DNA of 64,000 bases, taken from Octopus vulgaris. Taxonomy: Eukaryota. How positions within the stretch are numbered: the stretch's first letter is position 1; each line of letters begins with the position of its first letter. Where the stretch lies: the NCBI GenBank assembly GCA_951406725.2, contig OX597840.1, forward strand, positions 12,710,001 to 12,774,000. Reading direction: 5' to 3'. Below, in pieces: positions 10,583 to 63,700 of the stretch. A program made the translations under genes and the position numbers. The notes beneath the pieces were generated by a model. The model saw only the letters and a program-made list of their open reading frames with translations, had not been told where the DNA came from and did no database searches.

Positions 10583-10705
10583 ATGCCTGATGTAGTTCAT
10601 CCTGTCGTCATTGATAATGGATCACATACATGTAAAGTTGGTTTTGGAGGTGATCATGAACCAAGAATTGCCATTTCTTCAGATGCTGATTATCCCAGAG
10701 ATCAG
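10583..10705 (+). CDS. Divergent actin-like protein ActL-1, exon 1 (41 codons)
   Basis: MPDVVHPVVIDNGSHTCKVGFGGDHEPRIAISSDADYPRDQ carries the actin phosphate-1 loop DNGS..CK.GF. It ends CAG|GTACGT, the conserved phase-0 actin intron after codon 41. Confidence 0.92.
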
Positions 10706-10909
10706 GTACGTTGACTATATTTATATGTAACTTTAAATACTCACACACACACACACACACACACACACACATCACCATCATAATGATCCTTGTTTTTTAA
10801 TGTCCACTTTTCCATGTTTGCATGGGCCAGGTGGAATTCTTCATGAAAGATATTCTATGCTGATACCTTTTATATCAGGCTATCCTTCACCTTTTTCCAA
10901 ATATCATAC

Positions 10910-57731: not shown

Positions 57732-60700
57732 TATATATATATATACATACATACATATATATGTATACATACATACATACATATATATATATATATATAT
57801 ATATATATATATATATATATATATAAATATGTGTATTTTTCAATTTATGTGTACAAATAACACAGAAAAAATAAATAAATAGTTACCAGAGTAGCAAAAA
57901 TTCACATAAGTACCAAGATGTTACAGCCTACTTATAAAGGTAGGAGTTCGAGGGTTTAGTGAAATGTTTTTGAATAACAAAGCTAATTTAAGAAATGGAG
58001 TTAAATGCAAGCAACTGTCCAACTGTTGGATGGTATGATGTATTTTCACATGGTGGTGCTGTATGTTATGATACATGACCCGAATTTTCGTCTCCAAAGA
58101 CACTTTGTCCAATGTCACTTCATCCACTTATTTTGGTCCATTATCCTTTTGTTCAATGATTTTTATGTTCAACGACTTTTTGTCCAATTTTAAATAAAAT
58201 CTTTAGAAAACAAAGTGAACAACAAAATCAAATAATCATTGGAAATTTTATTTATAGGATTTGTATTTGGACAAAAACATCATCGGACAAAAAGACGTCA
58301 GACAAAAAGATATGGACGAAAAGACACTGGACAAAGTGACGTCGGACAAAAAGATATAGCACCATTATGATATTGGTCCCAGACACCATGATGTTTACAC
58401 GGGAGACACTGGCCCCTCTCTGATTGATTGTTAATTTTCAGGCTGAGGCAGTGGATCAATACATGTCTACAGTTATACATATATAACTGTAGGTGCAGGA
58501 GTGGCTGTGTAGTAAGTAGCTTGCTAACCAACCACATGGTTTCTGGTTCAGTCCCACTGCGTGGCATCTTGGGCAAGTGTCTTCTGCTATAGCCCCGGGC
58601 TGACCAATGCCTTGTGAGTTGATTTGGTAGAAGGAAACTGAAAGAAGCCTGTCGTATATATGTATATATATGTATATGTAAGTGTCAGTGTTTGTGTGTC
58701 TGTGTTTGTCCCCCTAGCATTGGTCGACAACTGATGCTGGTGTGTTTACATTCCCATCACCTAGCAGTTCGGCAAAAGAGACCAATAGAATAAGTACTGG
58801 GCTTACAAAGAATAAGTCCCGGGGTCAATTTGCTCGAGTAAAGGTGGTGTTCCAGCATGGCCACAGTCAAATAACTGAAATAAGTAAAAGAGTAAAAGAG
58901 TATATATAAATGAAATAATTGAGATTCAGTTGAATTGGGTACTTAAGTTGAATCCCTAAGTCAGACCAGCCAAAAGTAAGGTGATAAAATATTTATGGAC
59001 TAATGTTTATAATTGACATAGCAATTTTAAATTTTATTTTATACAACATACAATATTGCTGTCAATTCACTCTTGTCCTTTTTCTTAGCATTCAAAATTA
59101 ACATCATGACACATTCTTCAAGTCTTAGATTTAGACTAGTTGATAAAGAGATAAATGAATTGAAAGAAATGAATTACAACACTATATGACCTCATTATGC
59201 TCCGTGCAATTCCTAGAAGTTGTAATCTATTCTTAGCTACAATAGTGACAACATGAATTTCTTCCATCTTCTTACTCTGTTAAAATATTTAAGAAAAATT
59301 ATATTAATGTGCCCTACATGTTAAAATTCCATTCATTTATTTGTACAGCTGAAGATGGCATTACATTAAAATTGATGTACTGATTGCATTGTTAAATTAA
59401 ATGGAGCTGCTTGAAACAGTCGTACTGCATCACTTGATATCCTGTTGCATATTTTGATTATATGTGTGTGTGTGTGTGTATTTTTTATCTTTTACTTGCT
59501 TCAGACATTAGACTGTGGCCATACTGGGGCAGGGCCTTGAAGGGTTGTAGTCAAACAAATCGACCCCAGTACTTAGTTTTTCCCAAGCCTGGTACTTATT
59601 CTGTCAAACTCTATTGTTGAACTACTAAGTTATGGAAATATAAACACACCAACATCAGTTTTCAAGCAGTGGCAGGAACCAAAGACAGGTATAATGATGC
59701 ACACACACACACACACACACACACATCTGACCTTGATGTTAGCAAAGCCATGGAATGCCTTGTCAGAAGGAAGATGATCACATTCTTTGAAGAAAATATC
59801 TTGCTCACTAACATGTAGCATGGTTACACTTTAATATGGAGCTCCCTTACATAATTAATCGCATATTAAAAATGAATAATTAATCAACAGCTCAACTGTT
59901 CAAATATCGATGTGATGTATCTCAAACCACTGGGTAGTAAAGAAATATATTAAATGAATAATTAAAACAGCTCAACTGTTCAAATATCGATGTGATGTAT
60001 CTCAACTTTGCCAAGGCCCTGACAAATGTCAATCATGGAATGATATGGTCACAAATTGTATGACCCTTGTATCACAGGGAAACTAGGGACATGGCTGCAT
60101 TACAGAAAGTCATTGCAAAGGGATCCCTAGCCAGGGAACTGTATGAGGATCACTGCTGTTCAAAGAGGCTCTCCCACCCGTGCTCTCAGTCAGACAGTCT
60201 CACCAGCTCTGCTGATGATATCTGAGTATTACAAAGTCTCAAGGACTACAGAATGATAGGAATGTAATATACAAATGGTCTGAAGAAAGCAACATAAAGT
60301 CTAATGCTGATAAATTGCAAGCATTTTGATATCACCCTACAGATTCCACTTGGAATGCACAGGAGCAGGGAGTATTGCAATCCCAAACTTAGAGTCAGTG
60401 CTTGACTTGGGAATCCACTTGAGTGGCAATGTGTCTTTCTGTGGGAATATTACTAAGGCACATATACTTACACACATATACAGAAGTTACCATACACACA
60501 CACACACACACACACTCACTTACTCTCCCTTCAGACATTGCTGTTGGGCTGTTATGATGAAACATTCTCTAAAGTGCATCAAAAACAACAGAACACTATT
60601 TTTATTAAATTCTTTATTAAAGTTCAGATCACACAAAAATCAACATTTTACTCAAATTTTATGGTTACATGGCAGTTTAGAACAACATTATCTTACCATT

Positions 60701-63700
60701 AATAACAAACTTATAATACTGAAAATAGGTTCCAGAGAGGAATATTGCTAACAAAATATGTTAGTACTAATTAAATCCATTTGTTACCAGATTTCTTTTA
60801 AGATACAAAAATTATGAAGAATTTAGTCAAAGTAACTTTCTCGTTATGAAACTGGCATTTCAAACATACATTAACGCAAATATTTCATGGAAGATTTTAA
60901 TTGAAATCACTTTAAAACAGGCAGCTTTTATCATAGAATCAGGGTTTACTCTCAGGTGGGTTAGTATTAAAAGGGTTAGTAGGATTTCATTAATATCTCT
61001 TATTAATTGTCATTGTAGGGGTGAAAGGGGTCTCCCCATATGTACATACTAATTTCTCAAATTTACTATTATGTTTCCTACAGACATAAGATACGCCAGA
61101 TTCTTTATATTCTTCTTTTGTAATCCACAGATCATCAGTGGGAGGTCTACTAGCCAATCTAGAACCCCCAATCCATGGAGAGTATTCACGTTCTGGTAGA
61201 GCAATGATATTAACCTCTGTGTCAGGTGGTGCCAAGGCACTGATTTCCTTTTTCATACGCTCAACAAAACCTGGAAACATTGTTGAACCACCAGACAACA
61301 CAATGTTGGCAAACAGATCTCTCCTAATTTCCACATCACATTTCATGATTGAGTTATAAGTCATCTTATGAACACCATCAGAAGGGTTGAAAATAGCTTC
61401 TGGGACTCGAAATCGTTCATTGCCAATGGTAATGATTTGTCCATCAGATTGTTCATGACTCTTTTCCAAAGCTTTAGAAGATTTTGCTGCCTGCATTTCT
61501 TGTTCAAAGTCTAGAGCAACATAGCAGAGCTTCTCTTTGATGTCATTTAACGTTCTGTTGTCTGACATTGAGTCACCAAACATGTAGCCACGTTCAGTCA
61601 AGATACTTCTAAGGTTATCTCTCAAGGCAAGACCAGTAATATTCTGATGCTGACAGAAAGTAGCTCCTTTTATAGTTGAAGCTCCATAAATAGGGACAAC
61701 TTGGGTGATACCATGGCCTACATTCACAGAAATACCTGTGACACGGCCAGAATCAAAGAGGGACAAAGCAGCTTGATTAGCCACCATTACTGCACGAACT
61801 TGAAACTTTTCAAACATAATTTCAACCATATTCGCCATGTGTGTTTCAGAGTTACCAACAGGCTCAGTCAACAAGACAGCATAGTCTTTGGCTGCAACGT
61901 TCAATTCGTTGAATGTATGTCGCCAGATCCTCTCCATATTACCCCAGTCAGTAATAATACCATGTTTAATGGGATTCTGCAAATTAAGGACAGTTTTATC
62001 CTTTTCAGCTTTCTCTCCAACAAGGATTTCGATTTTTGGTCCAGAATTTTTCTGCAATATAATAAATGACAATAAGAATTCTAGAAACTTAAGTCAATAA
62101 AATTTTTTACAAGATAGAAATGATAGAAAGAATTACACAAACAATGAAATTTTCATAATCAATCCTATAATATCCTATAATCAATCCTATAATATCCTAT
62201 AATTAATCCTCTAATATCTATATATATAAAACTGAGAATGTGTGTGTGTCTGTCTGTCTGTCTGTCTGTCCGTCCGTCTGTCTGTGTGTTTCCCTAAAAC
62301 TTGAGAACTACACAACCAATTTCATTCAAATTTTACACATGCCTTACGTAGGGTCCGGGGAGTGTCATTGCAAGAGACGAGCCTACAATTCCAGTCTGTT
62401 ATATATTTTGAGTATTGTTATCACTAGTGATATCAAGATATAACTTTGTATTTTGTATTTTATGTGTAGATGTATATATATAGAAGTACATGTAATATGT
62501 ACACATATATATACACATATATACATGCACTAGAACTATGACCCGGCAACGACGGGTCATAATGCTAGTATGCTATAATTAATCTTATAATATCCTACAA
62601 TTAATCGCATCATATCCTATAATTAATCCTATAATATCCTATAATTGATCCTATAATATCCTATAATCAATCCTATAATATCTTATAATTAATCCTATAA
62701 TATCCTATAATTAATCTTATAATATCCTATAATTAATCCTTTAATATCCTGTAATTAATCCTTTAATATCCTATAATCATATCTATAAAAGGGTGGATGT
62801 GTGTGCGTGTGTGTGTGTACGTGATAGTAATTTATGCACGTCCACAAATTAGCATGCATGTAGCTCAAATGTTAGGACATTTGTCAACACCCTATCTGGG
62901 TTTTGTCAACTTAATTTTTTCTCCGAGGGATCCGTGGGTAGCGTAAATATCTAATTTCAGACATAGCTTTAAGCCACAAAAAATATCGGACTTAGCTTTT
63001 TTGCCAGCGTCTAACAAAAAAATAAGATAAAGAAAAGTGGAAGAAGGAGGCAGAGAGTTTCATGGGAAAGACAAGGTGAGAGAGGGAGAGAGAGAGTAAG
63101 TGACCACATTCATAAAAAATGGAATGTAAAATGTTTTGTTTTTTGTTTTTGAAATGCACACTATATGTTATAGTCATCGTATATATACTTTCTTACACAA
63201 CAATTACAATATATTTATTTTAAATCATTTATTTATTTTAAATCGTTCATCTTTCTCCCTGCTCTCTCTCTCTCTCTCACACACATTACTTTAGGTGCGA
63301 AAGAGTTTTGTTTTTATTTTATGCCAAGAAAACAAGTGTCTTGTTGACAATCCATATATTTAACAACAAAGAAACAAAGAGGTGAGTAACAATTTGTCAG
63401 TGAATTACACAATATAAATGGGTACAATTTGCGAGGCTTCCACCACAACCCACTCCGTTTCACAGACCACAAAAAGGGTTTTGAGGCCAATAATTTTTCC
63501 ATTCATTTCTGTTTATCAACATGTATGCGTGCAAAAAACATGCAATTGGTCTACATACGTACGTGTGTATATGTGTGTTCGTGTCTGTTGCCCATATGTA
63601 TTTATATTATATTATATATATATATATATAATATATATATAACATATATATATTGTAACTAATTTCAACGGATTTCGCCCAAATTTGACGTCTATATTAC

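Follow-up and report, generated by a model that had tools for sequence, protein, structure and literature searches.

Divergent actin-related proteins (Arps) outside the conserved classes are already known from mammals and flies. The testis orphan Arps of mammals, ACTL7A/B, ACTRT1-3, ACTL8 and ACTL9, are mostly intronless and older. In Drosophila, Arp53D is a young, lineage-restricted derivative of actin that evolves rapidly under positive selection and is expressed in the testis; the part of the source available to us describes an N-terminal extension of 40 amino acids and no recurrent site selection in PAML (PMC8291977). The obscura group of Drosophila underwent a burst of actin duplication that produced D-ActL1-3 and Arp2D, 57-97% identical to actin. 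According to the accessible part of that study, the duplications were independent, no recombination was detected, ATP-binding and hydrolysis motifs are preserved, surface positions are under positive selection and some copies were lost (PMC7038667). Across the available text of both sources, orphan Arps of this young, fast-evolving and positively selected sort belong mainly to the male germ line, in flies as in mammals (PMC8291977, PMC7038667). Here we describe a family of this kind in Octopus vulgaris, from a window of 64,000 nucleotides (G000:C27:12710001-12774000, the whole stretch of DNA analysed) in the middle of a ~300-kb cluster of actin-like genes (C27, 12.58-12.88 Mb). We read the family as intact, positively selected tandem actin duplicates that are predicted to serve as ATP-binding, poorly hydrolysing, non-filament structural Arps, most likely of the male germ line, and we hold this combined reading to be about evenly balanced. 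The octopus instance is undescribed in the literature searched, and subscription journals and bioRxiv supplements may still bear on its novelty; the part of an O. maya testis paper available to us holds one unrelated mention, with 0 matches in six supplement files (PMC6341066).

The window carries three actin-fold reading frames and a pseudogene, as an earlier note on this DNA had proposed and as six-frame translation and inspection of splice sites bore out. ActL-1 (copy A7 of subfamily A, forward strand) has an exon 1 of 41 codons with a GT donor (10583..10705), a phase-0 GT-AG intron of 3570 bp (10706..14275) and an exon 2 that includes the stop (14276..15262). The protein has 369 amino acids and is 53% identical to the own-genome actin C7a. 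ActL-2 (B1 of subfamily B, reverse strand) has an exon 1 of 38 codons (33356..33469), a phase-0 intron of 7377 bp (25979..33355) and an exon 2 that includes the stop (24968..25978), together encoding 374 amino acids. For ActL-4 (B2, reverse strand) the window holds only exon 2, with an AG acceptor and the stop (60990..62051). The earlier note knew this gene as exon 2 alone, but its exon 1 lies beyond the window edge at C27:12795759-12795646, across an intron of 23.6 kb, and the database model P0123 pairs the same two exons. The 391-amino-acid protein ends in a frame-shifted tail that is 17 residues longer. Placement of the intron after codon 41, also claimed in the note, holds for ActL-1; in ActL-2 the intron follows the gene's own codon 38, though the site is homologous to actin-41. 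The Pfam Actin E-values of the three exon 2s (4.6e-89, 1.1e-81 and 5.5e-86; 275-299 bits versus a cut-off of 27) show that the actin likeness of these frames is not due to chance.

As judged from sequence relationships, the family originated from a C7-type cytoplasmic actin by DNA duplication. In a 30-row maximum-likelihood (ML) protein tree, whose bootstrap was not fully settled, the eight family rows form one clade (100/99) within the actin clade (98/97), apart from the Arp1- and Arp2-like genes of the same genome. A third-position tree joins the family with the C7 pair and one more divergent gene on C17 at 99/99, and at four-fold sites the two cytoplasmic actins on C7 lie at a distance of 0.23-0.33 from the family, the C2, C11 and C8a actins at 0.52-0.75. 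The C7 parent (C7:29.63 and 29.73 Mb) shares with the family the same two coding exons, phase-0 intron and fold, at a protein identity of 53-64%. Unlike the parent, the family has a rewritten G15 of the phosphate-1 (P1) loop, phosphate-2 (P2) loop, H161, Y169, R177, R183, D-loop and C-terminus, with a nonsynonymous-to-synonymous substitution ratio (omega, or dN/dS) near or above 1 at many sites. The phase-0 GT-AG intron is present at the actin-41 site in all 11 gene models built and likewise in 4/4 conventional actin exon 1s checked. This shared site indicates DNA duplication rather than retroposition, in agreement with the earlier note. Among the matches listed, the C7 actin flanks showed no non-coding homology beyond a common repeat. 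Conventional actins are more than about 75-80% identical to other actins, and those of this genome are 91-97% identical to conventional actin; at 51-55% for the window copies and 63% for C1, the family members would not be counted among them.

The earlier note had also asked whether these proteins might group with a known Arp class. Orthology to Arp1, Arp2 or the nuclear Arp4-6 is extremely improbable. The P1 motif DNGSY does resemble the DIGSY of the own-genome Arp4-like gene, and nuclear Arp4-6 can also have Tyr at position 15; in one tree a partial Arp4 row was weakly attracted to the family. The genome, however, has separate multi-exon Arp1-, Arp2- and Arp4-like genes (C2:91.96 Mb, C11:54.85 Mb and C5, respectively; labelled by their motifs), the first two of which are 37-42% identical to the family and set apart by starred branches. 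Protein identity of the family is 52-64% to own actins versus 35-42% to the partial Arp1/2/4 sequences, and site counts place it with actin over Arp4 by 30-43 to 5-9. Third positions are unsaturated relative to C7 actin, and this synonymous-site link refutes an Arp-class origin. For a B copy from O. sinensis, the AlphaFold model built from a 146-row alignment has a pLDDT of 93 and finds actin as its best match (Z 46.9, rmsd 1.7, 345 residues aligned, 52% identity); structural alignment gives 29% identity with yeast Arp4, 30% with a chain of Arp2/3 and 20-31% with the remaining nuclear Arp chains. On the same comparison (20-31% versus 52% for actin), membership of Arp3, Arp5, Arp6, Arp8 or Arp10/11 was rejected. 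Single-sequence AlphaFold of the ActL-1 orthologue reached a pLDDT of only 33, and the alignment-based model is that of the B copy alone.

Further unusual actins occur elsewhere in the genome. At C17:44.43 Mb (L012, L064) is a divergent derivative of the C7 actins whose exon 2 shows 67% identity to conventional actin. It has H73R, D157H, V76I and T126K in common with most of the cluster and Lys at D11, and run X18 has a contig that agrees with it exactly along 21 bases. The intact intronless actin at C8:84.62 Mb (L014), which is 75% identical to conventional actin and which third positions group with that on C2 (97/97), is likely a retrocopy. A very divergent two-exon actin-like gene at C8:50.26 Mb (L019, L065) is 43% identical to actin and has a long branch.

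We surveyed 404 kb around the window and found 12 near-full-length actin-like genes between 12.58 and 12.87 Mb: one of C type, seven of A type and four of B type. Of these, 10 are intact, and the two broken ones are an A copy with both a frameshift and a stop and a B copy with a stop. The cluster also holds two spare exon 1s and four dead D-type fragments with the same lesions in all. The D fragment of the window (approximately 51410..52262, reverse strand) has lost its 5′ part and carries an insertion of ~200 bp, frameshifts and a stop; it shares 87% DNA identity with subfamily C, and the three further copies outside the window are 95-97% identical to it. Blocks of 1.5-11.6 kb at 93-99% identity point to segmental duplication, and in the window the segment at 57821..63998, which carries ActL-4, duplicates 21507-27931 at 91-95% identity (self-BLAST). 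Sliding identity and segment trees show ActL-1 to be 93-100% identical to A3 in the middle and 61-66% near the 3′ end; the cluster genes are mosaics. Through segmental duplication, together with gene conversion and gene death, the family has grown into subfamilies A, B and C, and it is larger and faster-evolving than the window alone could reveal. Several hundred bases 5′ of the ATG can be aligned among A, B and C copies. In the database the cluster genes are named “actin-like” or hypothetical, and adjacent genes are often merged (P0185, P0123, P0188, P0244). P0185 joins four A copies into 1331 amino acids, and P0123 fuses ActL-4 with the pseudogene. Such fused models conceal the family.

The octopus family resembles Arp53D in being young, lineage-restricted, derived from actin and rapidly evolving under positive selection, but the origins are independent (42-50% identity, separate branch), and in the octopus 10 copies stand intact in tandem, their proteins are short or truncated at the N-terminus, and a site model gives a signal. 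Arp53D and D-ActL2 were rejected as orthologues on their separate branches in the 30-row tree and in a quick 54-row tree used for topology only. Surface positive selection and loss of some copies are shared with the obscura-group paralogues; unlike these, the octopus genes form one recombining cluster, have D154 and H161 replaced and carry an intron that proves DNA duplication. The mammalian orphan Arps are likewise divergent actin-fold proteins outside Arp1-10, a class described in the accessible part of PMC7038667. In this comparison a germ-line role has been shown on the mammalian side only, and the octopus family is set beside them by description rather than by sequence comparison.

In actin, D154 and H161 activate the nucleophilic water, the Q137A/D154A/H161A triple mutant is without measurable ATPase, and inorganic phosphate exits via R177, N111 and H73, as set out in the portion of the source available to us (PMC9646518). 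Alignment anchored on actin His73 upheld the residue changes that the earlier note had listed for the window copies: a P1 loop of DNGSH in ActL-1 and DNGSY in ActL-2, a P2 loop of NVGHGITQ in all three intact copies (D154N, D157H, H161Q), retention of Gln137, Arg at His73 in ActL-1 only, an acidic N-terminus that is reduced or lost, and absence of the C-terminal Cys-Phe from all three. To these we add S155V, V159I, Y169S, R177Q/H, R183V/L and a family-wide one-residue deletion near 91, as well as loss of the six-residue hydrophobic plug (265-270) in ActL-2 and ActL-4 and of a five-residue subdomain-4 stretch in ActL-1. Across the family, 73 invariant positions equal actin, including D11, G13, S14, Q137, G156, G158, K213, E214, G301 and G302. 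A further 14 do not vary but are derived; they include S155V, H161Q and Y169S, which are unchanged over three species despite only 50% identity between subfamilies A and B. H161Q is fixed and D154N is common; the three window copies all have N154, Q161 and Q or H at 177, and N111 and Q137 are kept. The catalytic network (Q137, D154, H161) and back door (R177/N111) of conventional actin are thereby incomplete in all three. The pair N154 and Q161 was found in 0/427 non-family actin-like proteins, 16 of which have both sites changed in other ways. Among 74 positions presumed to form the filament interfaces, ActL-1 keeps 28, ActL-2 and ActL-4 keep 19 and C1 keeps 32.

Retention of the phosphate-binding glycines, S14, K18, Q137, K213/E214 and G301/G302 predicts that nucleotide binding persists, and replacement of the water-activating residues (D154N and H161Q) predicts that ATP hydrolysis is impaired. 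We consider it rather probable, from these residues, that the proteins are ATP-bound, slow at hydrolysis and do not build ordinary two-stranded filaments. By the published mechanism of actin, nucleotide would still be held by the preserved phosphate-binding residues; with Asn and Gln, which do not ionise, in place of D154 and H161, and with the back door at R177 lost, the protein would stay mostly in the ATP state. Treadmilling F-actin seems unlikely, since the D-loop and Y169 are rewritten or deleted, as is the entire hydrophobic plug in the B copies of O. vulgaris and O. sinensis; the proteins would more likely serve as stable monomers, caps, short oligomers or scaffolds than as filaments. 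The same family, with the same origin, could instead have kept ATP hydrolysis through a rebuilt route, for instance with His157 as base, and form its own specialised filament or a co-polymer with actin. Neither Q137 nor any P-loop glycine varies, subfamilies A and B conserve the derived P2 loop itself over three species, the modelled fold is intact and C1 retains 32/74 interface residues. Yet both water-activating residues are altered in most copies, ActL-1 is left with 28/74 and ActL-2 and ActL-4 with 19/74 interface residues, the latter two lack the plug, and the interfaces are the fastest-evolving part, an ill fit to a fixed polymer geometry. We regard a rebuilt route as unlikely, although it is the strongest of the competing explanations.

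Selection was analysed on the 10 intact copies, with the broken copies left out (four-fold-site tree length 0.65). About 27 nonsense changes are expected under neutrality and 0 are present; the cluster is not in neutral decay. With seven segment-specific trees, comparison of models M2a and M1a gave a likelihood-ratio test statistic (LRT) of 31.8, with omega 0.28 on 42% of sites, 1 on 41% and 3.3 on 17%. The LRT was 28.6 for the core only, 41.5 for A only and 8.4 for B only, and null simulations of the segmented fit returned 0.0 in 3/3. Site omega averages 0.69 over 26 presumed pocket positions and 1.43 over the 74 presumed filament-interface positions (permutation p 0.0009 and 0.0001, respectively), versus 1.09 overall. 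The pocket is under purifying selection, and about 17% of codons have an omega above 1. An explanation by redundancy and relaxed selection, with transcribed duplicates that drift toward loss, would agree with an overall omega of 0.80, with pairwise dN/dS of 0.65-0.95 between subfamilies and with the two broken copies, four dead fragments and two spare exon 1s. The lack of stops where about 27 are expected (broken copies left out), the roughly 42% of sites at omega 0.28, the constrained pocket and the retention of both A and B in three species largely refute this explanation, which we consider very improbable.

Germ-line expression, with sexual or genetic conflict as the driver, would follow the example of the fly and mammalian genes, and by that analogy we consider a germ-line role somewhat more probable than not. 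The main alternative places impaired, non-filament actins in somatic tissue, in an arms race between host and pathogen, as decoys or as actins resistant to bacterial actin-modifying enzymes. R177 and T148 are changed in all three window copies (P(omega>1) 0.88 for T148), and E270 is changed or deleted in all three; we take these to be target positions of such enzymes. Recurrent positive selection at single sites and tandem birth and death are also typical of immune genes. However, about 60-75% of the listed interface positions are changed anyway, so changes at the targets do not go beyond chance, and the known orphan actins are of the germ line. We think the host-pathogen explanation improbable.

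Several observations weigh against our preferred reading of non-filament, poorly hydrolysing germ-line proteins. In the protein tree, the partial Arp4-like row (46% filled) lies in an open polytomy beside the family (86/94). D154 is still Asp in A4, A6 and two O. sinensis copies, and is Ser in one O. bimaculoides copy. With Q137 kept and D154 present in some copies, some hydrolysis may remain, and the newly acquired H157, conserved in both A and B, could have a catalytic role of its own. The plug is retained in the B copies of O. bimaculoides, so its loss is recent and not family-wide. The two broken copies among 12 and the four dead fragments indicate weak constraint on single copies. The codon models are our own implementation, with fixed scaled branch lengths, applied to paralogues that exchange sequence. 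In eight simulations from earlier fits with a stuck site-class proportion, the null LRT rose to 16.9 with one tree and to 3.8 with segmented trees; residual gene conversion can therefore inflate the selection signal. The pocket and interface contrast depends on presumed position lists, and its interface excess comes from a comparison without control for exposure, when surfaces evolve faster anyway. The germ-line step is one of analogy.

At least two cluster genes, ActL-1 and ActL-2, are spliced into RNA. Four runs were compared for each gene. For ActL-1, contigs in X1, X3 and X5 (two studies) jump 3570 bases with GT..AG ends; no such join was found in X18 among the matches listed. For ActL-2, contigs in X2 cover exon 2 with four differing letters in total, and the loose end at the acceptor is an exact exon 1; among the matches listed, X6, X7 and X16 gave no long ActL-2 contig. 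These blanks hint at restricted expression, yet are not evidence of it. The runs are not recorded as RNA, and we read the joins as RNA because genome searches gave no intronless family copy. The earlier note had named a lack of spliced transcripts together with neutral decay as grounds for abandoning its proposal, and neither is what we find. A second X2 contig differs from ActL-2 at 19/200 letters, the same number as ActL-4 itself does, which is only suggestive of transcription of ActL-4. The fraction of ActL-1 31-mers found in A1 is 0.23 and in A4 0.21, and runs with 0.20 of the ActL-1 words may hold a paralogue instead. A candidate poly(A) end at 16399 was rejected, as it coincides with a genomic A-run.

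The family appears to be lineage-specific, as the earlier note had supposed. In word-based and profile searches, 22 of the 448 proteins fetched are clearly nearer the family than conventional actin, and all 22 come from O. vulgaris, O. sinensis or O. bimaculoides. Over the full P2 segment, family members score 142-163 bits versus ≤113 for single-domain non-family matches. O. sinensis has subfamilies A, B and C, and O. bimaculoides has A and B; ActL-1 and its orthologue in O. sinensis share 96.5% identity, and A1 has 76% with the closest copy in O. bimaculoides. Judged from matching contig size, the O. sinensis copies lie on one contig of 20.26 Mb and the O. bimaculoides copies on one of 22.55 Mb. 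No squid or cuttlefish relative was among the top-ranked candidates scored, a weak negative given that these taxa are thinly sampled. The 534-amino-acid mollusc “actins” at the top of homology lists (P0005-P0019) were rejected as relatives; they are conventional actins that contain an internal repeat, and many are probably the product of fused models or of exon duplication.

Repeats are frequent around the window genes. An AT-rich satellite with a 22-bp unit occupies the B-type introns, at 27726-32296 in ActL-2 (4.6 kb, strand inverted in part of 30100-30700) and from 62155-63998 onward to C27:12784225 in ActL-4 (about 10 kb). Broken retroelement-like open reading frames (ORFs) on the forward strand (36424-38824 and 44889-45839), presumably Penelope-like, have reverse-transcriptase-like and GIY-YIG-like motifs and no Pfam match at 1e-3; copies of the first were found again in other B-type segments. 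Inverted arms of about 250 bp flank a TA microsatellite at 48395-48946 in a MITE-like arrangement, and a solo arm at 9338-9615, upstream of ActL-1, is 95% identical. Both were considered as exon-1 relics by translation and rejected as non-coding repeat. Near-palindromic elements lie at 8204-8462 (260 bp) and 15500-15840 (340 bp), the latter just 3′ of the ActL-1 stop, and 9956-10106 and 10421-10568, upstream of ActL-1, form an internal duplication of 150 bp (80%).

Actin is among the most conserved proteins, and within one cephalopod lineage it has given rise to at least a dozen copies with half of their residues replaced. As an independent origin of orphan actins, in lophotrochozoans, the family allows a test of whether such proteins arise repeatedly for the male germ line. 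The copies with D154N and H161Q are natural catalytic-water mutants, with sister copies that still have D154 and a plug present in O. bimaculoides and deleted in O. vulgaris and O. sinensis; this series is suited to asking how ATP hydrolysis and polymerisation become uncoupled. A bolder possibility, which we hold only tentatively and think doubtful, is that the cluster is an array of natural pseudo-ATPase actins, ATP-locked by the fixed loss of the D154/H161 pair and incapable of the two-stranded filament, in which positive selection and gene conversion diversify the surfaces into an antigen-like repertoire for an arms race of sperm competition or of host and pathogen. If true, no multigene array of this recombining, actin-derived sort would have been described in an animal before.

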